Source: Elusimicrobiota bacterium
Lineage (GTDB): Bacteria; Elusimicrobiota; Elusimicrobia; Elusimicrobiales; UBA9959
NCBI GenBank assembly: GCA_018829985.1
Contig: JAHJSU010000333.1
Coordinates: 1-56,857 of the forward strand
Length of the DNA: 56,857 nucleotides
Direction of reading: 5' to 3'
Shown: positions 11,116-56,857 of the stretch, in pieces
Numbering within the stretch: position 1 is the first letter of the stretch
Layout of the letters: the number at the start of each line of letters is the position of its first letter
The notes under the pieces: generated by a model
Told to the model about the DNA's origin: nothing
What the model saw: the letters and a program-made list of their open reading frames with translations, nothing else
The model's database searches: none
Translations under genes and position numbers: made by a program

Positions 11116-11301
11116 CCCGAAAATTGCGAAGCAATTTTCGGAAGGCTAAAGGATAAAGGCTGAAGGATGAAGGAAAAGATACAGCAGATACGCCCGCTAT
11201 TTCAGCGGGCGCTCGCCGAACTGGCGAGCGATTTTTTCCGCCCCTTAGCCTTTATCCCTAATCCTTTATCCTTCCCGAAAAATTTAACTAAATTTTTCGG
11301 G
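11116..11301. repeat. Composite three-hairpin element, copy 2 (rpoA-rplQ spacer)
   Basis: Same architecture and near-identical arms as 5986-6174. The loop carries a terminator-like stem. Confidence 0.85.
11209..11238 (+). terminator. Intrinsic-terminator-like stem-loop plus T-run inside composite element copy 2
   Basis: GCTCGCC-GAACT-GGCGAGC followed by ATTTTTT. Confidence 0.45.
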
Positions 11302-11316
11302 ATTTAGGATCCATTT

Positions 11317-11661
11317 ATGATAAAAAACCTCGGACACAGAAAGCTTTCAAAGACAGGCTCTCACAGGCGCGCCATGTTCTCGAATATGGCGACCAGCCTT
11401 CTCCTGCATGAGAAGATAAGGACCACCCTGCCCAAGGCTAAGGAACTCAGGCGCGTGGTGGAAGGGATCATTAATGATGCCAAGAAGGGGCGCAAATTCT
11501 CGGTCAGGAAGGCCGTGCATAGCAGGAACGTCTATAATAAGATCTTCGATGTGATAGCCCCCAGGTACAAGGACCGCGCCGGCGGCTGCACCAGGATCCT
11601 CAGGCTTGGCGCCAGGAAAGGCGACGCCGCCGAAACAGCCATGATCAAATTAGTAGACTAA
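11317..11661 (+). CDS. rplQ: 50S ribosomal protein L17
   Basis: [25 protein letters not shown] signature. Confidence 0.95.
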
Positions 11662-41597: not shown

Positions 41598-41686
41598 CGG
41601 AAGGGGTGGGATTCGAACCCACGGTACGGCGATAACCGTACACCGGTTTTCAAGACCGGCGCCTTAAACCACTCGGCCACCCTTCC
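41598..41686 (-). tRNA. tRNA-Ser (anticodon UGA), CCA not encoded
   Basis: The reverse complement folds as a cloverleaf: acceptor GGAAGGG/CCCTTCC, anticodon loop CT-TGA-AA, long variable arm GTACGG..CCGTAC, and T-arm GTGGG-TTCGAAT-CCCAC. Confidence 0.93.
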
Positions 41687-41693
41687 TCGTTTT

Positions 41694-41960
41694 TTACTTC
41701 TTACAATTCGCTAATATTTTAAAAACTTGTTTTCGTCCATCGCCGGATTTTAGAAAATTCTCGCGCTTCCTGGCCTCGGTGTAATCCGGCACTCTCTCGG
41801 CATAAACCATCTCCCACGGGCGGCCTGATTTTGTTGACCTTGTCCTCCCGGAGTTGTGGGCCGCCAAGCGTGTTTCAGCATTGTCGGCCCTGCTGGACCC
41901 GGTGTAAAATCTGGCGGCTTTCTTACTGTAAAGAATATAAACGCAGGGCATATTTGTCAC
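41694..41960 (-). CDS. GIY-YIG nuclease-domain protein (small, stand-alone)
   Basis: VYILYS...FYTGSS...RLAAHNSG...E..RKRENFLK pattern of the GIY-YIG/URI fold. Ends 7 nt upstream of tRNA-Ser on the same strand. Confidence 0.8.
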   Translation of the reverse strand: MTNMPCVYILYSKKAARFYTGSSRADNAETRLAAHNSGRTRSTKSGRPWEMVYAERVPDYTEARKRENFLKSGDGRKQVFKILANCKK

Positions 41961-42204
41961 CGGTTTTTCCGCCTAAGGCGGACCCGCTTGCCCGCCGGCC
42001 GTTTTCCGCCACACAGCTTCGGCGGACCCGCCGGTTGTTTTCCGCCACACTACTCGGCGGACCCGCCGGACTGTTTGGCGGGGGCGGGGGAGGGCCGGGC
42101 TGTTTGGCGGGCAAGACCGGCGCCTTTCCGCCGGAGGCGGATCCGCCATGTTGTTTTCCGCCACACTGCTCGGCGGACCCGCCGGACTGTTTGGCGGGGG
42201 CGGA
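41961..42204. repeat. Cluster of GC-rich REP-like palindromic units
   Basis: Iterated units of the form GTGGCGGAAAAC..CCGGCGGGTCCGCC and TCCGCC-TAA-GGCGGA. Its reverse complement is near-identical to 53371-53490 and to part of 33345-33450. Confidence 0.85.
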
Positions 42205-42225
42205 AAACCACTCGGCCACCCTTCC
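42205..42225. repeat. 21-bp exact duplicate of the tRNA-Ser 5' end
   Basis: AAACCACTCGGCCACCCTTCC is identical to 41666-41686. Confidence 0.9.
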
Positions 42226-42449
42226 ATTAAAAAGCTGCAAGTGCAGCTTGCAACCCCGTTAGAGAACAAACTCGGCAGCGGACAGCGCCATATGCCCGCG
42301 TCCGCCTTAGGCGGACGGTTTTCTCTAACGGGGTAACTGCTAAATTATATCAAATAAGAATTTAAAACCGGTCGCGCGGCCGGTCGGCCTAAACAATCCT
42401 TCCCCGTCCGCTCCCGGCTGACTGTGACATGCCGCCGCCCTGTTTTTGT

Positions 42450-42478
42450 TTGCCTTACAACACCGAAACCACTACAAT
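42450..42478 (+). promoter_or_regulatory. Candidate sigma-70 promoter for hsdR
   Basis: TTGCCT-N17-TACAAT, 30 nt upstream of the hsdR ATG. Confidence 0.4.
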
Positions 42479-42508
42479 ATTATTAGATTTGTCAGGGGAT
42501 TTTCTTAA

Positions 42509-44878
42509 ATGTCAAACGAAGCCGATACTTGCCGCAAATTTGTCCTTCCCAAGCTATACGCCGCCGGCTGGACCGACGACCACATAAGCGAGCAGAAATA
42601 TTTCACGGACGGCAGGGTTATAACCGTCGGCAACGCCTGTGTGACCAAAAAACAGAAACGCGCGGACTATCTTTTGCGCTATCGCCGCGACTTTCCCGTT
42701 GCCATTGTCGAAGCCAAGGCCGGCTATAAAACCGCCGGCGACGGGATGCAGCAGGCCAGGGAATACGCTGAAATTCTCGGGCTGATGTTTGCCTACGCCA
42801 CCAACGGCGCTGAAATACTGGAACACGACTACACTACCGGCGCAGAAACCCGGCTTGAGACCTTTCCGGCTCCGGAAGAACTCTGGCAAAGGTACAGAAA
42901 GGCCAAAGGCCTGTCCGCTGACAGTATGGCGGAAAAAGTCCTTGCGCCTTATTATTTCAATCCGGACAAGGAGCCGCGTTATTACCAGCGTATTGCCATA
43001 AACTCCGTTGTTCAGGCGATACTCAAAGGCCGGAGGCGCGTGCTTATTACCCTTGCCACCGGCACCGGCAAAACAGAAGTGGCTTTCCAGATCGCCTGGA
43101 AGCTTTGGACCTCCAAGTGGAATAAATCGGGGGAGGCGCGCAAACCCCGGATACTTTTCCTCTCTGACCGTAGCATATTGGTGGACGACCCCAAAGACAA
43201 GACATTCGCGCCTTTCGGCGAGGCCCGGCATAAAATTGACGGCGAGGCTGTTAAAAGCCGGGAAATGTACTTCGCCCTCTATCAATCACTGGCGCAGGAT
43301 GAACGCCGCCCCGGCCTTTACAAAGAATATGCCAAGGATTTTTTCGACCTCATAATTGTAGACGAATGTCACCGCGGCAGCGCCTCGGACGAGAGCAACT
43401 GGCGCGAAATCCTTGAATACTTTGAGCCCGCCTATCAATTGGGCATGACGGCCACCCCGCTGCGCGAGGACAACAAAGATACTTATAAGTATTTCGGCAA
43501 TCCCCTTTATACCTACAGTTTAAAGCAGGGTATAGAAGACGGCTTTCTTGCCCCGTATAAAGTTCACCGCATTGTGCCCGAGGTTGATGCCTCCGGCTGG
43601 CGGCCCGCCGTGGGCCAGGTTGACCGTTATAAACGCGAAATCCCGGATGGGGAATACGGTACCCCGGATTTCGGCAGGCTTCTGGCCTTGCGCCCCCGCA
43701 CTGAGGCCGTGGCCCGGCATCTTACGGATTTTCTAAAGCGCACAGACCGCTTCGGCAAAACCATAGTCTTTTGTGAAGACCAGGAAGAAGCCGAAGAAAT
43801 GCGCCTCCTCCTCAACAACCTGAATGCCGACCTTGTAAAGCAATATCCTGATTATGTTTGCCGCATTGTCTCGGATGAGGGAGCTTTGGGGCGCGGGCAC
43901 CTTGGCCGCTTTCAGGAGCTGGAAACCACCACCCCCGTTATTGTCACCACCAGCAAGCTGTTGACCACCGGCGTGGACGTGCAGATGTGCCGCAACATCG
44001 TCATATATAAAGTGGTTAATTCTATGACGGAATTTAAGCAGATAATAGGGCGCGGCACCCGCATTAAAAGGGATTATAAAAAGTTTTTCTTTAATATCCT
44101 GGATTATACCGGCAGCGCCGCCCGGCGTTTCGCCGACCCGGATTTTGACGGAGAGCCCGCCTTGCTTACGCTGGAGGAGATTGACGCAGCGGGGAAAGCA
44201 AAACCCGGCGCCGAAAAAATCTTAACTCCGGAACAAGAGGCCGACTATACTCAAACCCGCAATGAGTTTGAGCCTCCTGTTGAAGATTTGGGGCATGACG
44301 GCGCCCCCAGGAAGTATTATGTGGATGACGGCGACAAAATCCGCATAGTGGCGGATTATGAGCAAAGCCTGGATGAGTCCGGCAATAAGCTTAAGACCGT
44401 GCGTTATACGGATTACACCTCTGAAAAAGTCCGCTCCATGTTTACCTCTTCAGCCGAGCTCCTGTCAAAGTGGAAAGTTCCGGAGGAAAGGGAGGCCATA
44501 ATAACCGCCCTTGCCGAACGGGGAATAACTTTTGAGGATTTGGTTAAAGCCACCGGCCAGGATGACGCGGACCATTTTGATCTCTTGTGCCATGTGGCCT
44601 ACAACGCCCCTTTGCGCTCACGGCGCGAGCGGGCTGAGCGGGTAAGACTTGGTAAAAGCGACTTTTTTGAAAATTTTTCTCCGGATGCCAGGCAGATACT
44701 AAATGAAATTTTAGAGAAGTATGTTGAGTACGGTACCGAGCAGTTTAAAGTGCCGGATATCCTCAAGGTTGATCCTATTTCAAAACACGGCAATACCCTT
44801 GAAATTGCCGCCGTCTTTAATGGTCCGGAGAACCTCAAAGACGCATTAACCAAGCTGCAAACCTTCCTATATCCCTAA
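42509..44878 (+). CDS. hsdR: Type I restriction enzyme R subunit (short, COG4096-like form)
   Basis: N-terminal nuclease-like region (EADTCRKFVLPKL...VAIVEAK). SF2 motifs LATGTGKT, IVDECHRG and MTATP. Confidence 0.88.
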   Translation: MSNEADTCRKFVLPKLYAAGWTDDHISEQKYFTDGRVITVGNACVTKKQKRADYLLRYRRDFPVAIVEAKAGYKTAGDGMQQAREYAEILGLMFAYATNGAEILEHDYTTGAETRLETFPAPEELWQRYRKAKGLSADSMAEKVLAPYYFNPDKEPRYYQRIAINSVVQAILKGRRRVLITLATGTGKTEVAFQIAWKLWTSKWNKSGEARKPRILFLSDRSILVDDPKDKTFAPFGEARHKIDGEAVKSREMYFALYQSLAQDERRPGLYKEYAKDFFDLIIVDECHRGSASDESNWREILEYFEPAYQLGMTATPLREDNKDTYKYFGNPLYTYSLKQGIEDGFLAPYKVHRIVPEVDASGWRPAVGQVDRYKREIPDGEYGTPDFGRLLALRPRTEAVARHLTDFLKRTDRFGKTIVFCEDQEEAEEMRLLLNNLNADLVKQYPDYVCRIVSDEGALGRGHLGRFQELETTTPVIVTTSKLLTTGVDVQMCRNIVIYKVVNSMTEFKQIIGRGTRIKRDYKKFFFNILDYTGSAARRFADPDFDGEPALLTLEEIDAAGKAKPGAEKILTPEQEADYTQTRNEFEPPVEDLGHDGAPRKYYVDDGDKIRIVADYEQSLDESGNKLKTVRYTDYTSEKVRSMFTSSAELLSKWKVPEEREAIITALAERGITFEDLVKATGQDDADHFDLLCHVAYNAPLRSRRERAERVRLGKSDFFENFSPDARQILNEILEKYVEYGTEQFKVPDILKVDPISKHGNTLEIAAVFNGPENLKDALTKLQTFLYP

Positions 44879-44879
44879 A

Positions 44880-44904
44880 CAGCACAATTATTACAATTGT
44901 GCTG
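44880..44904. other. Perfect 10-bp stem hairpin between hsdR and the abiE promoter (terminator or operator)
   Basis: CAGCACAATT-ATTAC-AATTGTGCTG. No T-run follows it. It abuts the -35 box. Confidence 0.5.
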
Positions 44905-44909
44905 TGGGC

Positions 44910-44938
44910 TTGACAAATAGGCCGCCACAGCGTATAAT
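44910..44938 (+). promoter_or_regulatory. Consensus sigma-70 promoter for abiEi/abiEii
   Basis: TTGACA-N17-TATAAT, an exact consensus. It is followed by the inverted repeat TTACAtggagTGTAA (44941-44955) and ATG 44961. Confidence 0.65.
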
Positions 44939-44960
44939 AGTTACATGGAGTGTAACTATT

Positions 44961-45617
44961 ATGCGGGCAAACCCGGCTGAAAACGAACAAAAACTGTTCC
45001 TGATAGCCGATGGCCAGGGCGGCTATTTTACCGCTAAACAGGCCCGTTCGGCCGGCTACTACAACAGACTTCGGTATTATCATGCTGAAAAAGGCCATTG
45101 GCTTGCCGTAGACCGCGGGGTTTACCGGCTTAGAAACTACCCGGCCTCAGAAAGGGAAGACCTGATCCGCTGGTCGCTTTGGAGCTGCGACCGGAAAGGA
45201 AATCCCCAGGCTGTATTCTCTCATCATACCGCCCTTGCTTTTCATCAGCTTGGCGATATTATGCCCGCTAAAATTCATTTTACCGTCCCGCCTAAGTTCC
45301 GGAAAAAAATTTCAGGCGGCTGCGTTGTGCACCGCGCAGCCCTGCCGCCGGAAGATATTGAACGGCACGAAGGTTTTTTTGTGACAACCCCTTTCCGCAC
45401 GCTGTTTGACGCCCATATACACGGGTTTGAACCGGACCAGCTGCAAAAAGCCGTTGTTGACGCTTATAAAAAAGGGTTTATCCCGGATTTTAAGATAAAC
45501 AATCCAAAGACAGCCGAAGACCCGGGGGGTGTTGCCGGCGGCATGGGCGATTTTATGGCTTATGTTGCACAAATTATTTCCGGTTACAGGAACAGTCTTG
45601 CGCATGGAAGACCATAA
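44961..45617 (+). CDS. abiEi: AbiEi-family type IV TA antitoxin / transcriptional regulator
   Basis: N-terminal wHTH-like LIADGQGGYFTAKQARSAGY...LAVDRGVYRL. 14-nt overlap with the abiEii start. The start was chosen downstream of the consensus promoter. Confidence 0.7.
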   Translation: MRANPAENEQKLFLIADGQGGYFTAKQARSAGYYNRLRYYHAEKGHWLAVDRGVYRLRNYPASEREDLIRWSLWSCDRKGNPQAVFSHHTALAFHQLGDIMPAKIHFTVPPKFRKKISGGCVVHRAALPPEDIERHEGFFVTTPFRTLFDAHIHGFEPDQLQKAVVDAYKKGFIPDFKINNPKTAEDPGGVAGGMGDFMAYVAQIISGYRNSLAHGRP

Positions 45618-46600
45618 ACTTTATAAATCAGCTACGGCTTTCAGGAGAGCGCTTGAGGATCGTCTTAAAGCCATTGCCGGCGGCAGCATGGACCTGCCCC
45701 GGCTTAGAAAATCCGTGGCTTTTGAAAGACTGCTGGCCCGGTTTTTTGCCGATACCGGCTCAGCCTGGCTGCTGAAAGGCGGTTATGCCCTGGAAATCCG
45801 TTACAGGGGAAGCTCGCGTTCCACAAAAGATATGGATTTCACGCTGCCGAGCGCTTTAATGCTCCCCGGAACCAATAACGCGGACCCCGCCGCTATACAT
45901 GTTGTTATTGGGCGTATTGCGGCCAGGGAGCTTAATGACTGGTTTGAATTCCGCGTAGGCCCTGAAGCGCAGGAAATTGACGGCGCGCCATACGGCGGGT
46001 ACAGGTTCCCCATGGAAGCGGTTGTGGACAAGCGGCAGTTCTCAACTTTTCATTTTGATGTGGCCGTGGGCGACGCTGTAATGGGTGAGCCCGAGTGGCT
46101 TTTGGGCCACGATATGCTGTCCTTTGCCGGAATCCCGCCGGCAAAGATAGCCCTGCTTCCAAAAGAGCGGCATTTTGCGGAAAAAATTCATGCTTACACT
46201 TTCCCGCGCGGTAATGTCCCCAATTCAAGAACAAGGGACCTGGTGGACATGGTGATTCTAATACAAAAAGGGCTGTCAAAACAAAAAACATCGGAAGCAA
46301 TTAAGGCCACGTTTAGTAACTACTCAGGTTCTCCGTATTTTTCACGTATTTTTTGTAGTGGCAAAGCTTGCTTTGCCTTTTTGGGCAGAGTAAACTCTGC
46401 CACTACGACGACAGACCTGAGTAGTTACCACGTTTAACAGAAGGGGGACTCACGCTGTTCCTAAGGCGCTGGAGTATCCGCCGGATAACTGGAAACTGCC
46501 GTTTAAGAATCTTGCCGAAGAAATAGGGCTTGAGCCCAAAGCAATGGACGCTGCTTTTGCCGTTGTGACGGATTTCTGGAACGAACTTTTTAAGGAGTAA
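45604..46600 (+). pseudogene. abiEii: AbiEii-family nucleotidyltransferase toxin gene, interrupted by a MITE
   Basis: KGGYALEIRY...RSTKDMDF NTase motif. The ORF now ends at 46437 in MITE-derived sequence. Removing 121 bp restores a 291-aa ORF ending at 46600. Confidence 0.8.
46316..46428. mobile_element. MITE-A copy (113 bp) inserted in abiEii
   Basis: 13-bp TIRs GTAACTACTCAGG/CCTGAGTAGTTAC. 8-bp TSD CACGTTTA at 46308-46315 and 46429-46436. 113/113 identical (reverse orientation) to 30396-30508. Confidence 0.9.
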
Positions 46601-46602
46601 CT

Positions 46603-48171
46603 ATGGCACGCTCAAAAACACCCGCTCAGCCGCAGACCACCGCCGGGCAGCTCAGTTCTATTATAAAATCCTGCCGCGACATAATGCGCAAGGACAAAGG
46701 CCTTAACGGCGACTCCGACCGCCTGCCCATGCTCACCTGGATAATGTTCCTTAAATTCCTGGACGATATGGAAAAAATGCGCGAGAACGAAAGCAAAATG
46801 GACGGCAAAAGATATGCCTCTGCCATACAGCCGCCCTACAGATGGCGCGACTGGGCCGCAAAAGAGGAAGGTGTTACCGGCGAGGATTTGATTTCTTTCA
46901 TCAATAACGACGAATGCGTAAGGCCGGACGGCAGCCGGGGCGCCGGGCTTTTCGCCTATCTTAAAAGGCTTGAGGGCTCCAGGAAAGGCGACAGGCGCAC
47001 GGTTATTTCCACCGTGTTCCACGGCGCCATAAACCGCATGCAGAGCGGCTACCTTCTGCGGGATGTTATAAACAAAATAAACGGCATACATTTCACCTCC
47101 ACCGAGGAGATTTACACCCTTTCCCATCTTTACGAAAGCCTGCTTAAGGAAATGCGGGATTCCGCCGGCGACGCCGGGGAATTTTACACGCCGCGCGCCG
47201 TGGTAAAGTTTATGGTTACCGCCATAAATCCCAGACTGGGGGAGACAGTGCTGGACCCTTCCTGCGGCACCGGCGGTTTTCTGGTTGCGGTCTTTGAGCA
47301 TATCAGGAACCAGTGCAAAAACGTAGAAGATAATAAAATTCTCCAAAACGACACTCTTTACGGCGGCGAGGCGAAATCCCTGCCGTACCTGCTTTGCCAG
47401 ATGAATTTGCTCCTTCACGGTCTGGATTCGCCGTCAATTGACTCCGGCAATTCCCTGCGCTTTCCGCTTAACGAGATAGGCGACAAGGACCGCGTGGATG
47501 TTATAGTCACAAACCCGCCCTTCGGCGGCGAGGAGGAAAAAGGCATACAGGGCAATTTCCCGCAGGACAAGCAGACCGCTGAAACCGCGCTGTTGTTTTT
47601 GCAGCTTATTATGCGAAAACTCAGGCGCAAAGGCCCGGAGTCAAAGAAAGGCGGCCGCGCGGCGGTAATCGTGCCCAACGGCACGCTTTTCGGCGACGGC
47701 GTTTCGGCAAGAATAAAGGAAGAGCTGCTTAAAGAATTCAACCTGCACACAATTGTGCGCCTGCCCAACGGCGTGTTCGCGCCTTACGCCGGTATTCCCA
47801 CCAACATACTTTTCTTTGACCGCGGCGGCCCCACCAAAGAAATCTGGTACTATGAGCAGCCGCTCCCCGAAGGCCGCAAGAATTACACAAAAACCCAGCC
47901 CATCCAGTTTGACGAGTTTAAGCCCTGTCTTAACTGGTGGAAAAAGCGCGAGGAAAACGACCAGGCCTGGAGGGTAAAGGCTGAAGATATCCTGAAATAT
48001 GACGAGAACAAAGTCCTCGTTTCCGCCAACCTGGACATAAAAAATCCCAAGTCCCTGGAAGAGTTTGAACACCTAGCGCCGGAACAGCTTGTAGAGGATA
48101 TCCTGCAGAAAGAACATAAAGTAATAGAAATAATGGCCGAGCTAAAAGAGCTTTTAAAGAAGGTCATGTAA
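46603..48171 (+). CDS. hsdM: Type I R-M system DNA methyltransferase subunit M (N6-adenine)
   Basis: Motif I DPSCGTGGFL, motif IV NPPFGG, and an HsdM N-terminal domain. Confidence 0.92.
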   Translation: MARSKTPAQPQTTAGQLSSIIKSCRDIMRKDKGLNGDSDRLPMLTWIMFLKFLDDMEKMRENESKMDGKRYASAIQPPYRWRDWAAKEEGVTGEDLISFINNDECVRPDGSRGAGLFAYLKRLEGSRKGDRRTVISTVFHGAINRMQSGYLLRDVINKINGIHFTSTEEIYTLSHLYESLLKEMRDSAGDAGEFYTPRAVVKFMVTAINPRLGETVLDPSCGTGGFLVAVFEHIRNQCKNVEDNKILQNDTLYGGEAKSLPYLLCQMNLLLHGLDSPSIDSGNSLRFPLNEIGDKDRVDVIVTNPPFGGEEEKGIQGNFPQDKQTAETALLFLQLIMRKLRRKGPESKKGGRAAVIVPNGTLFGDGVSARIKEELLKEFNLHTIVRLPNGVFAPYAGIPTNILFFDRGGPTKEIWYYEQPLPEGRKNYTKTQPIQFDEFKPCLNWWKKREENDQAWRVKAEDILKYDENKVLVSANLDIKNPKSLEEFEHLAPEQLVEDILQKEHKVIEIMAELKELLKKVM

Positions 48172-49355
48172 TGAAAAAAAACTGGGCCTCAGCCCCCTTG
48201 GGGGAAATATTGATTGAGCGCCGGGAAGTCCCTGATGCCGAAGCTCTTGTTTCAGGAGAAATCCCTATTATCTCAAAAATTTCTTTTAAAGACGGAGAAA
48301 TAGTGCTACGTTCGGGTGGGGAAACAAGAACCGGGATGATTCTTGCGCGCAATGGCGACTTGCTTGTGTCGGGTATAAACGCAGCTAAAGGCGCAATTGC
48401 GATTTATGAAGGAGAAAAGCCAATAGCCGCAACCATCCATTATGGCGCGTATATCCCCAACGAAGGCAGGATAGATGTTAACTATCTCTGGTGGCTATTG
48501 CGTAGTCAGGCTTTTAAAGATTTGCTGGAAAAATATGTGCCTGGCGGAATTAAAACAGAACTTAAATCCAAACGTTTTCTCCCTATACCAGTTCCGCTTC
48601 CGCCCTTGCCTGAACAGCGAAAAATTGTTGCACGGATTGAGGATGTTAATGATAAAAATCAACGCATAAAAATGCTTAATACAGAGATTAAGAAGGAAAC
48701 CGAGTTAATTCTTTCTACTGTCCTGTCGGATATTTTTAGCAAGGCAGTAAAAAAGGGTTGGCAACAAGGTCGTTTGGGTAATTATGTTGTTAAAGACTGC
48801 TATGGGACATCAGAAAAGACTACCGATGATATTTCTGGTACACCAATTTTAAGAATGGGGAATATTCAAAAAGGAAAAATCCTTCTAAACGGATTAAAAT
48901 ATTTGTCCTTAACAGATAAAGAGAAAAATAAACTGTTGCTGCAAAAAGGAGATATATTGGTTAATCGAACAAATAGCGCTGAGCTTGTCGGAAAGTGTGC
49001 TGTTTTTGACTATGATGGTGATTTCGGATTTGCCTCTTACTTGATTATGCTTCGGGTAAATAAGGAGACTGCTGACCCATATTTGGTTTCCTATTATGTA
49101 AATTCATCTCTTGGCAGAAAATACATGCTTTCAGAAAAAAAACAAATGACTGGGCAAGCCAATGTCAACGCCACTAAACTAAAAGCTTTACCAATAGCAT
49201 TGCCGACACTAAAAGAACAGAAAAAGATTGCCGGCTTTTTAAAAAAGATTGACGGGATGGTTATGGACACCGAAAAACTGATTCATCGATCAGAGACTAA
49301 AATAGACGGCTTATTATCTTCGGTTTTAAATAAGGCGTTTAAGGGTGATTCGTAA
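48171..49355 (+). CDS. hsdS: Type I R-M system specificity subunit S
   Basis: Two TRDs separated by conserved helices (LPPLPEQRKIVARIE / LPTLKEQKKIAGFLKKID). AT-richer than its neighbours. Start overlaps the hsdM stop. Confidence 0.9.
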   Translation: MKKNWASAPLGEILIERREVPDAEALVSGEIPIISKISFKDGEIVLRSGGETRTGMILARNGDLLVSGINAAKGAIAIYEGEKPIAATIHYGAYIPNEGRIDVNYLWWLLRSQAFKDLLEKYVPGGIKTELKSKRFLPIPVPLPPLPEQRKIVARIEDVNDKNQRIKMLNTEIKKETELILSTVLSDIFSKAVKKGWQQGRLGNYVVKDCYGTSEKTTDDISGTPILRMGNIQKGKILLNGLKYLSLTDKEKNKLLLQKGDILVNRTNSAELVGKCAVFDYDGDFGFASYLIMLRVNKETADPYLVSYYVNSSLGRKYMLSEKKQMTGQANVNATKLKALPIALPTLKEQKKIAGFLKKIDGMVMDTEKLIHRSETKIDGLLSSVLNKAFKGDS

Positions 49356-49369
49356 TTCAGGAGACAGCC

Positions 49370-50809
49370 ATGAACACGCGGAAATTGCTGGATAAGTTCC
49401 GGGGCTGGGCGCATTACGACCCTGTTATGAAGCAGGAGATGCTTGACGCGGCGGGGGAGTTTTTCGCTTTTTACGAGGAGCCGGAAGCGATTGAGAGGGA
49501 TGTGACTTTAAAAGGTCTTTTTCACGAATGGTTCCTTTTTGACAGGAAGACCACGCGGTATCTTAAAACACCGGCCGAAATCTTTCTGCGTTACGGCGGC
49601 CGCGCTGTCGCAAAAAAAGAAAAAGAATTTTTCAAAGCCCTTACCGAAACCGTTTTCGGCGTGTTTGAGGTTTTGTCTTCAGACGCCCAAGCCGGGCTTA
49701 TCCATATTAAAAGGGTGGACGGCGCCGGGGAATGGACTGTAAAAGACATACGCGGCAGCCAAAGTATGCAGGCAGGGAACGTGCTTTTTGCCAGGGTGAT
49801 CCCCCTGGCGGAAGAACCGATTTTCACCGGCTGGGTATCCGGCTATCCCGCCGGCGGCGGAGAGCTGAAGGATATCTTTAAAAAATTTTCAGACTCGTCT
49901 AAAAACTTATCCGGCTTAAAGCCGCGGTATCTGCTGAAGCTCTGGAGCAGACCCATTAACTGGCTGGAGAAGGGGGAATTCTTCTGCAAGACCCGCCTGG
50001 CCGGCATCTGGCAGAGATGGTGCGGCAAAGACAGGCCTTTCTCAGAATTGGAAGCCGCCGTGGACACGGGCGACCACGACAAATACCTGCTGGCCCAAAA
50101 AACCCTTCTCGAGAGCGTACCGGATCATGACGAGCTTCACGATTTAATGGACCTGCTGGAAGCCTACTGGAATCTGTCTTCCGGCAAGAAAGCGGGTTTA
50201 AAAACGCCGGTTGAGCGGGTAGGCCCGGCGGGCCCCGGACCCGTGGAAAGGAAGTATCTGAATATGCTCGGCGACGCCAATTTTAAGCGCTATCAAAAAA
50301 ACGGCGGAGAACTGTCAAAAGAGGAAAACGATTCCTGGCTGAAAAATCCGGCCAACGGGGAAAACGGCCTTAGCCCGTTTGAGCTGATTTCCAAAGAAAG
50401 AAAAAGCAATAATCACCCTTTTCCGGAGCAGATAAGCTATTCCATAAAAATACAGGGGCTTGAGAATAAGGCGGCGGGGCCCGCCTCGGAAAAGACGCAG
50501 GCCGCGCTGGGCTTTATGATGCACAAAAATTTTAAAAAAGCCGCGCAGCTCTATGAAGAAGCCCTTACAGTGTTAAAGCATGACAAATCAGTCTCGTTCA
50601 AGATTTTCGGCAATTTGGGCATTTGCTACGCGCTTATGGGTGAAAGGGAAAAGGCCGCCGAAGCGCTGCGCGAAGCCCTGCGCCACAACCCGGATTATGA
50701 CCGCGCCAGGGAGCATTTAAGCGACATTGAATCCATGACCGATAAGCAATACAAGAAATTCCTCAAGGAGGGTCCGGACCATCTCACCCACAGCGAATGG
50801 CGGGGATAA
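49370..50809 (+). CDS. Hypothetical protein with C-terminal TPR repeats
   Basis: 479 aa. The N-terminal module (LFHEWFLFDR...VFGVFEVL...GLIHIKRV) is vaguely like the N-termini of SEC-C-motif/YecA-like proteins (from memory, weak). C-terminal TPR (AAQLYEEAL...ALRHNPDYDRA). Confidence 0.55.
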   Translation: MNTRKLLDKFRGWAHYDPVMKQEMLDAAGEFFAFYEEPEAIERDVTLKGLFHEWFLFDRKTTRYLKTPAEIFLRYGGRAVAKKEKEFFKALTETVFGVFEVLSSDAQAGLIHIKRVDGAGEWTVKDIRGSQSMQAGNVLFARVIPLAEEPIFTGWVSGYPAGGGELKDIFKKFSDSSKNLSGLKPRYLLKLWSRPINWLEKGEFFCKTRLAGIWQRWCGKDRPFSELEAAVDTGDHDKYLLAQKTLLESVPDHDELHDLMDLLEAYWNLSSGKKAGLKTPVERVGPAGPGPVERKYLNMLGDANFKRYQKNGGELSKEENDSWLKNPANGENGLSPFELISKERKSNNHPFPEQISYSIKIQGLENKAAGPASEKTQAALGFMMHKNFKKAAQLYEEALTVLKHDKSVSFKIFGNLGICYALMGEREKAAEALREALRHNPDYDRAREHLSDIESMTDKQYKKFLKEGPDHLTHSEWRG

Positions 50810-50818
50810 AAGAATATA

Positions 50819-52909
50819 ATGCCGGAAGAAAAAAACAAGCCCTATCAGGGCATAAAGACCGGAGAGCCCTCCCCGGCGGCATTTTTCTTTGCGCCGGACG
50901 GGCCCCTTTCCGGGGCGCTGAAAAATTTTGAGCCCAGAAAGCAGCAGGAAGCGATGGCCGGCGCCGTTTACAGCGCTGTCGGCGAAAAAAAGCATCTGAT
51001 AGTGGAGGCAGGCACGGGGGTGGGAAAGTCGCTTGCCTATCTTCTGCCGGCGGCCTTATGGGCGGTCCGTAATAAAAAGAAGGCGGTGGTCGCCACCTAT
51101 ACCAAGGCTCTTCAGGAGCAGCTCACCAAAAAAGATCTGCCTGTCGTCAAGGCCATGCTGCAAAATGCCGGGCTTGAGCTAAAGTATTTTCTCTTGATGG
51201 GCTCCTCCAATTATCTGTGCCTGGCCAGGCTGTGCAGATGCGCCGAACGGGGCGCCGGGCTTTTTGACGATGAAGAAGCGCGGAAAACAGCGGAGGACCT
51301 GCTTGAATGGTCCAAAACCTGCGTTTCCGGCTGCCGGACCGAAGTGCCGTTCAGGGTTTGCGCGCGCGTTTGGGAAGAGGCTTGCCGCGACCCGGATATC
51401 TGCCTTGGCAGGCGCTGCTCCTTTAAAGAGGACTGCCTGTACCGCAAAGACGTGGCCAAGGCAAAGCAGGCCGACCTTATTGTGGTAAACCAGCATCTTT
51501 ATTTCGCCGGTATTCCCATCCCCGCTTTTGACGCGGTTATCTTCGACGAGGCGCATAACCTTGAGGACGTGGCGTCCAATTTTTTCGGTTTCTCGCTTAC
51601 GGACCGGCAAATAAAGCGCCTGCTGGATGATGTCTTCAACGCCAGGTCCGGCAAAGGCCTGGCAAAAAGGCTCCGGCGCCCGCCCGCTAAATGGCTGGAT
51701 GAGGTTAAGGACGCGGTGCGCGACGCGCATTTTGCCTCAAAGCTGTTTTTTCAGGATATAGCCGAAAAAACCGGGCTTGTCCGCCGTAGCCTTAGCGAAG
51801 GCGGGCTCAACGGCGCCGGCGGCGGATTTCAGGCCAAAGCCAGGCGGGTGCGCGAGCCCGGCATAGTTGAAAATCCCCTTTCCGGGCCGCTGACGGAGCT
51901 TGGCGGGCTTCTCTCCGGCGCCGTCGGGCACAGCCAGACGGATTTGGAGGAGCTGGAAATTAAAGCGCACCACAACAGGTGTCAGCAAATTACCGGCCAG
52001 CTTAATTCCTTCCTTAAATGCGAAAGCAAAGAGCACGCGTATTGGGTTGAGGTTAAGTCCGCCAGGCGCAATCCGGTTATTTCATTGAATAAAGCCCCGG
52101 TGGAGGTGGCGGACAGTCTGCGAAAAGAGCTTTTTGAAGCGCATTGCCCCGTAATTTTAACTTCGGCCACGCTGGCGGCTGGCGGCTCGTTTAAGATGCT
52201 TCGGTCCAGGCTGGGCGTGGACAACGCTTCCGAACTTCTTCTGGACTCGCCTTTCGAGTATGAAAAACAGGCCGTAATTTATATGCCGGCGGATATCCCG
52301 GACCCTAAAGACGCCGCTGAATATGAGCGCGCCGTTATCGGAAGCTGCCCTGAAATAGCCGCGGCGGTGGAAGGCGGCATTTTTATCCTCTACACCAACT
52401 GGCAGTTGCTTGAAAAATCTTTCAGGAACCTGGCGGGCGCAATAACGGGCAGGCCTCTGTTCCGGCAGGGGGAAAAACCGCCGCAGCAGTTATTGGCGGA
52501 TTTTAAAAAAGCCGGCAACGGGATTCTGCTGGCCACGGACACCTTCTGGCAGGGGATAGACGTGCCGGGCTCCGCGTTGTCCTGCGTGGTAATAACCAGG
52601 CTGCCGTTCCTTTCCCCGGATACCCCGCTTGAAGAGGCCCGCCAGGAATGGATGGCCGCAAAAGGCATTGACGTTTTCAGCGAATATTCGCTGCCGAAGG
52701 CGATAGTTAAATTCAGGCAGGGCTTCGGCCGGCTGATAAGAAGCGGCAGCGATTTCGGCGCGGTCATTGTGCTGGATCCCAGAATAAAAACCAGGCGTTA
52801 CGGCGCCATGTTCCTGCGGTCAGTGCCCAAATGCCGGCGGCTGGAAAGTTTGAAGGAAATCAAAGAATTCTTCTCATCCCGGAAACCCGGCGCGCAATTG
52901 TCTAAATGA
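50819..52909 (+). CDS. DinG/XPD-family (Rad3-like) ATP-dependent DNA helicase with Fe-S cluster cysteines
   Basis: Walker A EAGTGVGKS, DEAH box FDEAHN, a Cys-rich segment (C...CRDPDICLGRRCSFKEDC), and C-terminal helicase_C_2 motifs (FWQGIDVPG, QGFGRLIR). Confidence 0.85.
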   Translation: MPEEKNKPYQGIKTGEPSPAAFFFAPDGPLSGALKNFEPRKQQEAMAGAVYSAVGEKKHLIVEAGTGVGKSLAYLLPAALWAVRNKKKAVVATYTKALQEQLTKKDLPVVKAMLQNAGLELKYFLLMGSSNYLCLARLCRCAERGAGLFDDEEARKTAEDLLEWSKTCVSGCRTEVPFRVCARVWEEACRDPDICLGRRCSFKEDCLYRKDVAKAKQADLIVVNQHLYFAGIPIPAFDAVIFDEAHNLEDVASNFFGFSLTDRQIKRLLDDVFNARSGKGLAKRLRRPPAKWLDEVKDAVRDAHFASKLFFQDIAEKTGLVRRSLSEGGLNGAGGGFQAKARRVREPGIVENPLSGPLTELGGLLSGAVGHSQTDLEELEIKAHHNRCQQITGQLNSFLKCESKEHAYWVEVKSARRNPVISLNKAPVEVADSLRKELFEAHCPVILTSATLAAGGSFKMLRSRLGVDNASELLLDSPFEYEKQAVIYMPADIPDPKDAAEYERAVIGSCPEIAAAVEGGIFILYTNWQLLEKSFRNLAGAITGRPLFRQGEKPPQQLLADFKKAGNGILLATDTFWQGIDVPGSALSCVVITRLPFLSPDTPLEEARQEWMAAKGIDVFSEYSLPKAIVKFRQGFGRLIRSGSDFGAVIVLDPRIKTRRYGAMFLRSVPKCRRLESLKEIKEFFSSRKPGAQLSK

Positions 52910-53859
52910 AAATACTTTTTGTCACCGACCTGCACGGAAACGAGGCCAAATTCCGCCGTGGTTTTGATATTGCCAGGGAGACCGGCGCAAAAGCCGTTAT
53001 AAACGGCGGCGATATGCTCTGCCACGGGGCGGACATTCACAAAGAGCAGCGGGAGTTTATAGAAGGCTTTCTTGACGGGCACTTCGCCGAATATGAACAA
53101 AGCGGCATTTACCATCTTGGCTATCTCGGAAACGACGATTTGCGGATATATGACCCGCTGTTTGATTCGGTTTGCTCGAAATACAAATACGCAGTGAATC
53201 TGGCGCAGTCCCGGTTCGAGCTCTATGGTTTTGAATTTATAGGCATGAACTGGGTTACGGATTACCCGTTCAGGCTGAAGGACAGGTGCCGCCGCGACGG
53301 CCCCGGCTATGTTTTCCAGGAACAGTTCGGCTCCGGGCTGCTGTCCACTCCCGAAGGCTTCAAAGAGCTGCCCGCCCCCGCCAAACAACCGGCGGGTCCG
53401 CCGAGTAGTGTGGCGGAAAACAACCGGCGGGTCCGCCGAAGCTGTGTGGCGGAAAACGGCCGGCGGGCAAGCGGGTCCGCCTCTGGCGGAGAGGACTGGC
53501 CGGCTTATGCCGCCACGCTGCCTACCATTGAGAATGAACTTGCCGCCCTTCCCAAGCCGAAGACAGTCGCTAAAACGGTTTATGTAATCCACATGCCGCC
53601 TTCCGGGCTTGGCCTGGATGTAACCGACTCCGGGGAGGAGGTAGGCTCAAAAGCCGTCAGCCGGTTCATCAAGAAAACAGGCCCGCTATTGACCTTGCAC
53701 GGCCACATCCACGAATCGCCGTCAATGAGCGGCGTATGGAAAGCCAAAATCGGGAAAACGGTGTGTATTCAGCCCGGCCAGATGAAAGGAAAAGCCTTAA
53801 GTTATGTTCTGATAAACCTGAAAAGCATGGAACTGGAAAGATTTGAAGAGCCGCTGTAG
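52906..53859 (+). CDS. Calcineurin-like metallophosphoesterase carrying an in-frame REP-array insertion
   Basis: ILFVTDLHGN, GGDM, GNDD, HMPP and LHGHIHES motifs. 4-nt overlap with the helicase gene. Confidence 0.8.
   Translation: MKILFVTDLHGNEAKFRRGFDIARETGAKAVINGGDMLCHGADIHKEQREFIEGFLDGHFAEYEQSGIYHLGYLGNDDLRIYDPLFDSVCSKYKYAVNLAQSRFELYGFEFIGMNWVTDYPFRLKDRCRRDGPGYVFQEQFGSGLLSTPEGFKELPAPAKQPAGPPSSVAENNRRVRRSCVAENGRRASGSASGGEDWPAYAATLPTIENELAALPKPKTVAKTVYVIHMPPSGLGLDVTDSGEEVGSKAVSRFIKKTGPLLTLHGHIHESPSMSGVWKAKIGKTVCIQPGQMKGKALSYVLINLKSMELERFEEPL
53371..53490. repeat. REP-like unit array (~120 bp) inside the metallophosphoesterase CDS
   Basis: Near-identical to the reverse complement of ~41965-42090 and to 33345-33420. 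Translated in-frame as PAPAKQPAGPPSSVAENNRRVRRSCVAENGRRASGSASGG. Confidence 0.85.
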
Positions 53860-54370
53860 ATCCCCGGTTACGCCCCCGGAAACTTTATAGAGACCTTTTG
53901 AAGTCGTTTTCCCCGGAATCCCCCGCTCCGCCTGATTGCCTGAATTGTGTATTTTGCGTTCCGCAAAACACACCGCGGCAAAGTCCACCGCTTCCAGCAG
54001 AAACGGCGTTGTTTATCATGGCCTCACCCCTTCCCGTCCGCCACCAAGCTTGGGGGGGCCGGGTTTCGTCCGTCTAAGGCGGACGTACAAGGCTATGTCA
54101 GTGCCGTATCAGGGTCCTTCGATTACACTCAGGACAGTGAGGCTTCGACGGTGAGCTCAGCCGAACCGCGCAGTCGAACTGCCTATGGCCTTCAGACGGC
54201 CATAGCTAAAAGTGCATATTTACCCCTTTCAGAAGGCGGAAATCTAATGGCAATTCGCCATATAAAAAAATATAATTGATTACCGGGGGTTGTAAAAATT
54301 GCGACTCAGTTTTGTTTTGATTTTTCACATTAACAATATGCCTTAACGCAGACCACCCGCAAAAACATGT

Positions 54371-56710
54371 ATGCATGACGAACTTGAGCAAGCACGACTT
54401 AAAATAGAACAGCTTCAGCGGGAAAATACTGAACTTCGCAAGCGATTGGGGGCGACTGTCGCTGAGCAGGCGCCGGTTTATACCACAACGGCTCCGGAAC
54501 TTCCTTTATTGGCGGAAACTTTGCCGACCGTCGCAAACAATGCTTCTATTGAAGAAAAAATAAAGCTTTTTCGTTCCTTGTTCAGAGGCCGGGAAGATGT
54601 ATATGCCGCCTATTGGCAGAACGACCGGACGGGCAAGAAAGGGTACTCCCCCGCATGTGAAGACCCGTGGAGCCTCCAAAAAGGCCAGCCTCGCAAATAT
54701 TTGCCGCTGACGGATCAGGTCATCAATGATCATCTGTCCGGCAATAAGATAGTCGGCGTATTTCCTCTGCTTAAAGACAATACCTGCTGGTTTCTGGCCT
54801 GCGATTTTGACAAAGACGGCTGGAAACTGGACGCCGTGGCATATCTGGAGGTCTGTAAGCGGTACGGGGTTCCCGCCTGTCTGGAACGTTCCCGTTCAGG
54901 CAACGGCGGCCATGTCTGGATATTTTTCTCTTCGCCGGTGTCGGCTGTTTATGCCCGGCAGCTTGGGATGCGCGTTTTAAGGGAAACCATGGATCTTCGC
55001 GGCGATCTGGACCTGGGGAGCTATGACCGATTCTTCCCGAATCAGGATTTCGTTCCCAAAGGCGGATTTGGCAACCTCATAGCCATGCCTCTCCAGAAAA
55101 AATGCCGCGCCATCGGTAATACGGAATTTCTGGACGGTTCCTCTACAGAATTACGCGCCTATCCTGACCAGTGGGCTTTTTTAAGCAGCGTCCAGAGACT
55201 CACACCGCAACAACTGAATGCTAGCCTTGAAGTTATACCGTTTGTCACTATTGGCCCCGGCAAAATCGAGTCCACACCTGAAGCCATAAGAGCCGGATAT
55301 CCGGCCCCTAAACAAATCCGCTGTGAGTTCTTCTCATCTTTCAGCCTGGAAAAATCGGGTATTCCGCCCTGGATGCTTTCCAAGTTAAAACATCTTGCAT
55401 CCCTGCATAATCCGGAGTTTTACAAAATGCAAAAACTCCGAAGATCCACCCACATGCTCACCCGATTTATCAAATGTTATAGGGAAGATTTTAGTCACTT
55501 TCACTTACCGCGTGGAACACGGGAAGATGTTAATGAAATAGCCCGGCAAGCCGGAAGCGAGCTTATATGTATTGATCGGCGTAAAGTGCCGGAGCCGCTC
55601 TCATTGCAATTCCATGGTTCTTTAAGCCCGGAACAGGAAAAGGCGGTTCAAACCGTCCTTCGCGAGGACATGGGCCTTCTTGTCGCGCCGCCCGGCGCCG
55701 GTAAGACGGTAATGGGCTGCTTTGCCATAGCCAAGCGCAACCTGCCGACACTGATTCTGGCCCACCGCAAACCTATCCTGGAACAGTGGCGAAAACAGCT
55801 CACAACGCTTTTAGACCTCGAGCCTTCTCAAATCGGCCGGATCGGAGGCGGCAAAAAGGAGCAAAACGGGATTATTGATCTGGCTATGCTCCAGACTTTA
55901 GCGCGTCTTGAAGATTTAAGCGCGCTTTTCTCAAAATACGGTTTCATCATAGTGGATGAGTGCCACCATCTGCCTGCGGCGACTTTTGAGGCCTGTATAA
56001 GAGAAGCCCCGACCAGGTATATTCTGGGCCTCACGGCCACGCCTTACCGCCGGGACGGATTGCAGGATATACTTATCATGCAGTGCGGCCCGGTTCGCCA
56101 TAAAATGTCGGAACAAATGAGCAATCTCCCGCTGCAATTGAATGTCCGCGAAACCGAATTTGTATGCCCGACAGAGGAGGATACGCCGATTCAGGAAATT
56201 TTCCGCGGCATTGTTCATGACGATACGCGGAGTACGTTAATCGAGCAGGATATATCAGCTGCCCTGAAACAAGGGAGACGCTGCCTGGTTTTAAGCCAAT
56301 GGAACGAGCACTGCCGGGCTTTGGCTGACAAGCTGGCCCGAAAGGGAACGACTCCTTTTGTTTTAAGCGGAACCCAGGGCAAGAAAGAACGCGCCGCCAT
56401 CTTAAAATCAATCCAGGACACGCCTCCGGACAAGGATTTAATAGTCGTCGCAACCGGACAGTATCTGGGCGAGGGTTTTGACTGTCCGCAGCTTGATACT
56501 CTTTTCCTTGCTTTTCCTGTATCTTTCAAAGGCAAACTTATACAGTATGTCGGACGCATCATGCGGGAGCATCCGTCAAAAAAGCGCGTGCTTGTTTATG
56601 ATTACCGGGATTCACAGGTGCCCGTCTTGAACAAAATGCACGCAAGGCGCCTTAAAACGTACAAGGCTTTGGGATTTAATCGTGATAACCGGAAGGAGAT
56701 GTTTTTATGA
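54371..56710 (+). CDS. Primase-polymerase (AEP)-like N-terminal domain fused to an SF2 DEAD/DEAH-box helicase
   Basis: Coiled-coil start. FRGREDVYAAYW...GYSPAC...LACDFDKDGW...ERSRSGNGGHVWIFF...FPNQDFVPKGGFGNLIAMPLQ. Helicase motifs APPGAGKT, VDECHH and LTATPYRRDG. Confidence 0.8.
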   Translation: MHDELEQARLKIEQLQRENTELRKRLGATVAEQAPVYTTTAPELPLLAETLPTVANNASIEEKIKLFRSLFRGREDVYAAYWQNDRTGKKGYSPACEDPWSLQKGQPRKYLPLTDQVINDHLSGNKIVGVFPLLKDNTCWFLACDFDKDGWKLDAVAYLEVCKRYGVPACLERSRSGNGGHVWIFFSSPVSAVYARQLGMRVLRETMDLRGDLDLGSYDRFFPNQDFVPKGGFGNLIAMPLQKKCRAIGNTEFLDGSSTELRAYPDQWAFLSSVQRLTPQQLNASLEVIPFVTIGPGKIESTPEAIRAGYPAPKQIRCEFFSSFSLEKSGIPPWMLSKLKHLASLHNPEFYKMQKLRRSTHMLTRFIKCYREDFSHFHLPRGTREDVNEIARQAGSELICIDRRKVPEPLSLQFHGSLSPEQEKAVQTVLREDMGLLVAPPGAGKTVMGCFAIAKRNLPTLILAHRKPILEQWRKQLTTLLDLEPSQIGRIGGGKKEQNGIIDLAMLQTLARLEDLSALFSKYGFIIVDECHHLPAATFEACIREAPTRYILGLTATPYRRDGLQDILIMQCGPVRHKMSEQMSNLPLQLNVRETEFVCPTEEDTPIQEIFRGIVHDDTRSTLIEQDISAALKQGRRCLVLSQWNEHCRALADKLARKGTTPFVLSGTQGKKERAAILKSIQDTPPDKDLIVVATGQYLGEGFDCPQLDTLFLAFPVSFKGKLIQYVGRIMREHPSKKRVLVYDYRDSQVPVLNKMHARRLKTYKALGFNRDNRKEMFL

Positions 56711-56718
56711 CCCGAATT

Positions 56719-56826
56719 GTTACTACTCAGCCACAAAGTCACAAAGACACGAAAGAAATCAGACAACAAACCGTTTGATCCATAAACTTTCTTTGTGCCT
56801 TGGTGTCTTAGTGGCTGAGTAATTAC
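56719..56826. mobile_element. MITE-B copy (~108 bp) just after the AEP-helicase stop
   Basis: ~99% identical to 22865-22971 over ~98 bp. Confidence 0.75.
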
Positions 56827-56857
56827 TAAAAATCAGCGTTATCAGCGTTCTATATTC

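Follow-up and report, generated by a model that had tools for sequence, protein, structure and literature searches.

Do three genes packed tightly behind a type I restriction-modification (R-M) system form a defence module that belongs to this system? The question is raised by a contig of 56,857 nucleotides (nt) from an Elusimicrobiota bacterium (GenBank assembly GCA_018829985.1, contig JAHJSU010000333.1, forward strand), hereafter called the window, which is contig C320 of a metagenome-assembled genome (MAG) of 362 contigs and 3.5 Mb, designated G000. The genes in question, all on the + strand, encode a protein of 479 amino acids (aa) that consists of DUF7986 and a C-terminal tetratricopeptide repeat (TPR; 49370..50809, Pfam TPR_1 at residues 411-443), a 696-aa superfamily 2 (SF2) iron-sulphur (Fe-S) helicase of the DinG/YoaA type (50819..52909, Pfam Helicase_C_2, 7.5e-40) and a 317-aa calcineurin-like metallophosphoesterase (MPE) of the aq_1956/TT1561 (Metallophos_3) type (52906..53859, Pfam Metallophos and Metallophos_3). 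A preliminary description, made from the sequence alone, had proposed that this TPR-DinG-MPE trio is an R-M-associated module, recently acquired as one block with hsdM and hsdS. Our analysis favours a more restrained reading, to which we assign a probability of roughly 0.55: the block of 4.5 kb represents three genes in an operon-like row, restricted to one lineage and located inside a variable island of ~19 kb; it is no recognised defence system and shows no dependence on the adjacent R-M genes. The best-supported reading of its parts is that TPR and MPE form the durable association, while a defence role of the trio is unproven.

The tight packing of the five genes from hsdM to the MPE gene on the + strand was confirmed. 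According to the map of open reading frames (ORFs) and the junction sequence, hsdM (46603-48171) and hsdS (48171-49355) have one base in common at TAATG. A spacer of 14 nt containing AGGAG separates hsdS from the TPR gene, 9 nt lie between the TPR and helicase genes, and the helicase and MPE genes overlap via ATGA. The 9-nt spacer and the ATGA overlap suggest that the trio is probably co-transcribed and translationally coupled. The preliminary description did not recognise the trio as a named system, and the PADLOC-DB v2 models of anti-phage systems do not fit: the TPR protein matched 0 families, MPE gave only a 50-residue partial match to PDC-S10 (7.5e-11) and the helicase matched only generic DinG profiles.

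To see how widespread the trio is, we surveyed ~90 DinG loci (6 in relatives, 9 more in Elusimicrobia and 79 species-representative loci at ±5 kb), 46 MPE loci and ~30 TPR-family loci; the homologues now known number 3459 for DinG and 1082 for MPE. The trio was found once more, colinear and at 75% nt identity, on a contig of 6.9 kb (L197) that was located via the closest DinG homologue (76%) in a collection of 5.8 billion proteins; the trio is thus not unique to the window, as had been considered. L197 carries the TPR gene (67%, cut by the contig start), a 9-nt spacer, DinG, the ATGA overlap, MPE (73% without an insert described below), a 71-aa ORF and a SLFN_AlbA_2 ATPase gene. Comparison of L197 with the window yielded dN/dS ratios of 0.21 for TPR, 0.18 for DinG and 0.10 for MPE at dS values of 0.8-1.8, indicating purifying selection on all three genes. 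Apart from L197, none of the ~90 DinG loci had a TPR-family or MPE neighbour, and an hsd gene occurred only at the locus in genome G001; likewise, no DinG was present at the ~30 TPR-family loci besides the trio of the window and L197. Hence, the expectation that homologues of the three genes are syntenic elsewhere held in one instance and otherwise failed among the ~90 DinG, 46 MPE and ~30 TPR loci. The three genes travel together, apparently within one lineage, and the survey argues only weakly for the trio as a conserved system.

Pairing of TPR with MPE is the more recurrent arrangement. Next to close homologues of TPR (identity of 41% or more), an MPE gene was observed in a divergently oriented pair (L054), in a second divergent pair of which both genes are 5'-truncated (L154), in the order AAA_16, TPR, DUF7713, MPE (L098) and, in a close relative of the latter, in the order AAA_16, MPE, TPR fragment, DUF7713 (L057). 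Counting the window and L197, TPR-MPE adjacency occurs in about five lineages, four of them without DinG, and one genome (G288) has the TPR-MPE pair and no DinG at all. In an even sample of 300 genomes of the class, TPR is present in 19, MPE in 17 and both in 7, as compared to 1.08 expected (hypergeometric p = 1.7e-5, a statistic that ignores phylogenetic non-independence). Most likely, the TPR protein would act as an adaptor or regulator of MPE. A further-reaching proposal, which we put forward as unlikely but worth stating, is that TPR and MPE constitute an undescribed two-gene accessory cassette, that is, a candidate anti-phage or stress module of defence islands with a variable third partner. 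This partner would be DinG in the window and L197, and DUF7713 together with the AAA_16 ATPase in L098/L057; the TPR protein would then gate a nucleotide- or nucleic acid-directed MPE.

The TPR protein scores 38.3 bits with TPR_1 (Pfam cut-off 27.8), and PF25948 (DUF7986) is present in the precomputed annotation of all its close homologues. The family aligns over its full length with 42 invariant columns. An AlphaFold2 (AF2) model of fair quality reached a predicted local distance difference test score (pLDDT) of 80.8; DUF7986 makes up the N-terminal 360 residues, and Foldseek searches against PDB and BFVD returned no fold match for this region, only the TPR part being matched. The literature library searched contained no paper on DUF7986 or on a 'TOTE conflict system'. 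A phage origin of the family was discarded, as no member is present in IMG/VR, and the TPR gene is an accessory-island family restricted to Elusimicrobia. At one locus (L055), it stands among DUF1016, RhuM-Fic and Bro-N genes, and its neighbours elsewhere include HTH_17 with VapC, an MNT-type nucleotidyltransferase and a DUF4143 ATPase. At most of the ~30 loci of the family, no hsd gene lies nearby.

The relation of the TPR gene to R-M is clarified by another Elusimicrobia MAG (L053/L153; PEXN01000063, Ga0066637_10000544), which carries the same block of 9 kb in the order hsdR-abiEi-abiEii-hsdM-hsdS-fic-TPR. Identities to the window at the aa level are 92% for hsdR, 73-76% for abiEi, 74-79% for abiEii, 90% for hsdM and 72% for TPR, as compared to 27% for hsdS, which has another specificity; the fic gene has no counterpart in the window. 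Nucleotide similarity extends from 38 nt before hsdR to ~50 nt before the TPR stop (50760), with 75% nt identity at the TPR gene. In L153, the block is inserted between dapA and an amine-oxidase gene, which adjoin each other at an empty site in G000 (C17:4748-6521). Moreover, island proteins of the two MAGs are 72-92% identical, whereas their backbone proteins are only 50-60% identical. The identity gap and the insertion site together indicate that the R-M/AbiE block has moved horizontally as an island, of which the TPR gene is a part and forms the end. Neither DinG nor MPE was found in the L153 genome. Consequently, the proposed R-M-associated module is unsupported, given that this R-M/AbiE island carries TPR alone, and so is recent co-acquisition of the five genes as a block, since the shared segment ends after TPR. 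Outside the window, the loci surveyed showed no connection between the trio and R-M: TPR-MPE pairs elsewhere lack adjacent R-M genes, and in L197 the region upstream of the TPR gene is cut off by the contig start. What connection there is with R-M passes via the TPR gene, which can be carried as the last gene of an R-M/AbiE island. As a separate observation, a fic gene 90% identical to that of L153 adjoins a second hsdR on another contig of G000 (C43).

Membership of the helicase in the DinG family is clear from a Walker A motif (AGTGVGKS) and a DEAH box (FDEAHN), both invariant in the homologue alignment, from a PF13307 (Helicase_C_2) score above the cut-off and from the domain order DEAD, Fe-S insert, Helicase_C_2. 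In 13 homologues, the four cysteines C134, C195, C200 and C206 between motifs Ia and II show no variation (pattern C-x60-C-x4-C-x5-C) and predict a 4Fe-4S cluster. Their spacing resembles that of C120/C194/C199/C205 in E. coli DinG. The NCBIfam equivalog cut-offs were missed for both YoaA, the best-matching model (NF053712, 547 vs 680 bits), and DinG (NF008729, 347 vs 598 bits), so that the helicase classifies as a member of the DinG/YoaA family and not as a certified equivalog. Among PDB entries, E. coli DinG (6fwr) matches best, at 1.2e-42 as compared to 6e-7 for CasDinG. In comparison with E. coli DinG/YoaA, the window protein is alike in domain order, Walker A and DEAH motifs, cysteine pattern and single copy per genome; it differs by scoring below the YoaA cut-off, by its location inside a variable island and by the overlap of its gene with the MPE gene.

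A PADLOC match at 2.9e-124 to PDLC01439 ('typeIV_DinG, CAS-IV-A associated') raised CasDinG (Csf4) of type IV-A CRISPR systems, which belongs to the same helicase superfamily, as a candidate. However, the protein reaches only 93 bits with the Csf4 model TIGR03117 against a cut-off of 400, and the PDB ranking favours cellular DinG. These curated scores and the ranking identify the PADLOC match as a generic DinG signal. Scanning of ten neighbouring proteins revealed no csf/cas effector model, Cas-labelled matches being confined to helicase/primase profiles; no dedicated scan for CRISPR arrays was carried out.

A profile search of the genome showed that this is the sole full-length DinG-family (Helicase_C_2) gene of G000. 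One copy each was found in 83 of 301 genomes of the class, and identity to the window protein drops with phylogenetic distance (71% inside the genus, 58-66% inside the family and 40-47% for other families); in a tree, the window copy adjoins the same-genus copy. In several genera, DinG stands in a common FKBP-TerC-SNF-YgjP-MBL-DinG-YceI locus, in the same-genus genome G002 it lies between genes for a UvrD-like helicase and DinB, and its other neighbours in relatives include PDDEXK_1 (three times), RNase_T and RadC. These features are those of a canonical 5'-3' Fe-S helicase of the DinG/YoaA type with a presumed role in repair. The helicase had been proposed as part of a defence module; being the only copy in its genome and standing in non-defence or repair contexts in relatives, it largely fails to fit this role. 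The alternative that DinG is a resident housekeeping gene abutting the island was ruled out on two grounds: tRNA-Ser adjoins glmM in G002, and secA and lnt are adjacent in G000 at the site where G001 has R-M-DinG-lnt.

Remnants of DinG genes were detected elsewhere in G000. Three 5' remnants stand in tandem on contig C237 (859-1101, 2470-2790 and 3375-3457; 83-84% nt identity to the G001 DinG), separated by DUF1016 and RhuM-like genes, and a fourth on contig C53 (1255-1539; 83.5% identity to the window DinG) lies behind an epimerase gene, as in locus L202. Two remnants, on C237 and C53, have a common breakpoint, GCCACCTATAC, at codon ~95. Site-specific insertion at this codon with an island-borne 5' end was considered and rejected, as identity of the window DinG shows no step there. 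A different context was seen in L198:1431-5490, in which a 71%-identical DinG gene follows a DUF87/HerA-like ATPase gene by 10 nt; this contig also carries a Prok-RING_2 gene and, within the region 10360-11427, an integrase gene. L198 may represent a mobile element that carries a HerA-DinG pair.

The phosphoesterase is likewise securely assigned, with 35.7 bits for Metallophos as compared to a cut-off of 21.5. Its dimetal motifs are invariant in an alignment of 24 sequences (D8/H10, G35/D36, G75-N76-D77-D78 as a GNDD variant, H229 and H265-G-H267-I-H269). The AF2 model has a pLDDT of 87.9, and the best folds found by Foldseek are 2yvt (1e-11) and 1uf3 (1e-9) with template modelling (TM) scores of 0.55-0.72, with MPPED2 and SbcD as further matches. 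At the sequence level, no PDB entry gave a match better than E = 0.3. The structures 2yvt and 1uf3 correspond to aq_1956 and TT1561, two proteins of unknown function. The window protein resembles them in fold, in its PF14582 match and in the complete dimetal motifs, but is only ~17% identical; its family measures ~280 aa, has blocks of its own (DYPFRLKDRCR, QPGQ) and, in the window copy, an additional loop of 40 residues.

We inspected 32 MPE loci from Elusimicrobia, Nitrospirota, Planctomycetota, Desulfobacterota, Asgard archaea and others (43-63% identity, counting the window insert) and found neither a conserved neighbour nor an adjacent DinG. The 97 MPE neighbours at these loci comprise housekeeping genes mixed with AbiEii (3-4 loci), DUF4143/PDC-S01 ATPases, AAA_16 and a ZorD-like helicase; a phmmer search with the window AbiE matched no AbiE among these neighbours, and the loci that carry AbiEii were not located. 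An AlbA_2-type (Schlafen) ATPase gene follows MPE in L197 (4536-6239), in L199 (4654-6267) and, reading across the insertion of an AEP-helicase gene, in G000 itself (C28:167-1327). The family has an unusually wide and patchy spread, as judged from these homologues. Family members 43-49% identical to the window protein were noted in Promethearchaeota MAGs (L136-L138, L142), and relatives 29-49% identical on 11 large viral contigs of IMG/VR (L203-L213). Calcineurin-type phosphoesterases are proven defence effectors in PUA-Cal-HAD (bioRxiv 10.64898/2026.01.15.699771). In this PUA-Calcineurin-CE-HAD module, a calcineurin-superfamily phosphoesterase serves as effector beside a sensor domain in a defence island, which offers a plausible logic for the TPR + MPE pair, but no PUA or HAD partner was found among the window neighbours scanned.

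The trio stands in a variable island whose borders can be traced. On the left, it starts at tRNA-Ser(UGA) (41598..41686, - strand; ARAGORN, Rfam). The kinase gene and tRNA-Ser(UGA) ahead of the block recur in G002, where glmM-pdxJ-glmS comes immediately next and the island is absent. In G000, glmM is on contig C28, behind AlbA_2-like, 143-aa and AbiEi-like genes. The window ends with a high-copy miniature inverted-repeat transposable element (MITE; 56719..56857), and the same MITE of ~115 nt ends C320 and starts C28, as revealed by blastn of the contig end against the C28 start. The junction of tRNA-Ser and glmM in G002 and the terminal MITE common to C320 and C28 together delimit an island of ~19 kb (window 41687-56857 plus C28:1-3764), with the order GIY-YIG ORF, arrays of REP-type palindromic repeats, R-M/AbiE, TPR, DinG, MPE, AEP-helicase, MITE, AlbA_2-like, AbiEi-like. 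A direct join of C320 and C28 is probable on the basis of synteny and a multi-copy repeat. The defence neighbourhood noted in the preliminary description is thus confirmed and extended, from tRNA-Ser to glmM. As far as the island is assembled, no integrase gene was seen in it. The region resembles tRNA-linked defence islands, in which type I R-M carries embedded AbiE, Fic or RhuM cargo: it is variable and adjacent to tRNA-Ser, has an hsdRMS operon with embedded abiE as well as MITE and REP decay, and carries an AEP-helicase and an AlbA_2-like ATPase as additional cargo. It differs from them in that the cell's only DinG helicase lies inside.

How, then, did the row of three genes arise? In the reading we prefer, the TPR gene is an accessory-island gene, which stands elsewhere with Fic, RhuM or DUF1016 genes as accessories of R-M, with toxin-antitoxin genes or with ATPase genes, and in one genome as the last gene of the same horizontally transferred hsdR-abiE-hsdMS island. 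MPE is a highly conserved stand-alone dimetal enzyme and the TPR gene's recurrent partner, and DinG, the cell's only intact copy, was captured between the two in one small lineage (G000, L197). Several observations weigh against this reading. The exact junctions and intact frames are kept in L197 over a dS of ~1, as expected of an operon under joint selection, and defence-type genes flank the trio on both sides. The DinG gene has no stable housekeeping locus: in G001 it stands in the unstable context hsdM-DUF1016-hsdS-156aa-DinG-lnt, in L198 it accompanies a DUF87/HerA-like gene with a phage-type integrase further on, in L202 it is followed by AbiEii-AbiEi, and G000 holds 5' remnants elsewhere. 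Finally, shared ancestry left out of the TPR-MPE co-occurrence statistic bears on the pairing itself.

The intact arrangement in L197 keeps a three-component system for anti-phage defence or DNA processing under consideration, in which TPR would be the sensor or scaffold, DinG a motor acting on foreign or damaged DNA and MPE a nuclease or nucleotide-degrading effector. We regard this alternative as doubtful. The coupling retained in L197 and purifying selection on all three genes fit it, as do the position in a tRNA-linked island between R-M/AbiE and AEP-helicase, the precedent of calcineurin-type effectors in PUA-Cal-HAD (bioRxiv 10.64898/2026.01.15.699771) and the enrichment of both TPR (VapC, MNT, Fic, RhuM) and MPE (AbiEii, PDC-S01, ZorD-like) in accessory contexts. 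However, one further instance among ~90 DinG, 46 MPE and 30 TPR loci, probably of single origin, is little for a system; the TPR-MPE pair exists without DinG, even in a genome devoid of it, TPR stands alone in the sister R-M island, and the DinG gene, canonical and the sole copy of the genome, has repair-type neighbours in relatives. PADLOC, in addition, has no model for TPR and only the partial PDC-S10 match for MPE. Chance accretion of genes in a recombination hot spot, in which even the TPR-MPE adjacency is fortuitous and no protein works with another, would suit the mosaic nature of the island (MITE, REP arrays, the AEP-helicase insertion as compared to L197, 5' remnants of DinG on other contigs of G000) and the mostly unrelated neighbours of each family. 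It is nonetheless improbable in view of TPR-MPE adjacency in about five lineages and four different arrangements, the sevenfold genome co-occurrence of the pair and persistence of the trio over a dS of ~1. Distinctly improbable, too, is that TPR belongs functionally to the type I R-M/AbiE island, as its accessory subunit or its regulator, with DinG and MPE as unrelated neighbours. The hsdR-abiEi-abiEii-hsdM-hsdS-(fic)-TPR block that ends just after TPR in L053/L153, and the company of DUF1016, RhuM-Fic and Bro-N in L055, which is typical of R-M islands, speak for such a role; yet most TPR-family loci have no hsd genes in reach, TPR pairs more often with MPE than with R-M, and at 72% identity between the islands as compared to 90-92% for HsdR/HsdM it may be a separate addition.

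The remaining features of the island bear on its mosaic history. The preliminary description had taken the lack of palindromic repeats at the junctions of the five genes as consistent with joint acquisition. The junctions are indeed repeat-free, but at 14, 9 and -4 nt they are too short for any, and the MPE gene itself holds an in-frame REP array of 120 nt (53371..53493). This array adds 40 residues and no stop codon; 23 homologues lack it, aligning only to residues 1-155 and 197-317, and so does L197, whose colinear alignment breaks at 53370/53494; the encoded loop is modelled as disordered by AF2 (pLDDT <50, residues 162-195). A second REP array of 102 nt lies upstream of hsdR (41968..42069) and is 98% complementary to positions 53389-53490 of the one inside the MPE gene, 11.3 kb apart. 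The inverted copies bracket the segment from hsdR through the 5' half of the MPE gene, and inversion between them could occur. Across the contigs of G000, blastn gave 175 alignments to copies of the REP family. The 5' end of tRNA-Ser was noted to recur exactly, over 21 nt and in direct orientation (41666-41686 and 42205-42225), the two copies bracketing a small GIY-YIG ORF and a REP cluster just ahead of the R-M island.

The domain calls of the preliminary description for HsdR/M/S, AbiEi/AbiEii, TPR, DinG-like Helicase_C_2, Metallophos and AEP-TOTE plus SF2 helicase were verified with Pfam, PADLOC and NCBIfam. The type I R-M system is complete, with HsdR, HsdM and HsdS all present and full-length according to PADLOC: hsdR (42509..44878, + strand) matches REase_I at 5.6e-217 over profile positions 10-800 of 807 and Pfam ResIII and EcoEI_R_C, hsdM matches MTase_I (2.8e-199) and hsdS Specificity_I (1.3e-65). 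Embedded in this operon is an abiEi-abiEii pair (44904..46437, + strand; PADLOC AbiEi 5.7e-64, AbiEii 1.1e-69). The AbiEii match covers profile positions 2-220 of 310, and the 3' part of the gene has ~120 nt extra relative to L153, inside 46277-46477. Downstream of the trio, a non-coding spacer of 511 nt (53860..54370) contains no ORF of at least 110 aa and no Rfam family at gathering score, but a promoter-like site at 54247-54276. It precedes a gene whose product joins an AEP-TOTE primase-polymerase to an SF2 helicase (54371..56710, + strand; Pfam AEP-TOTE 4.3e-86, ResIII), which is an insertion relative to L197, where MPE precedes the 71-aa ORF and the AlbA_2 ATPase gene.

Taken together, if the ordinary reading of a lineage-restricted gene row in a variable island is right, its value lies in annotation: the borders of a tRNA-Ser/glmM defence island are set for a genome of an uncultured Elusimicrobia bacterium, a PADLOC 'type IV DinG' match turns out here to be just cellular DinG, and tight packing inside an island is seen not to imply a system. 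If, on the other hand, TPR and MPE prove to be a functional pair, they would provide a first handle on two families without an assigned role, DUF7986 and the widespread aq_1956/TT1561-like phosphoesterases, the latter of which are also present in Asgard archaea and large phages, and would add one more calcineurin-type effector to prokaryotic immunity.

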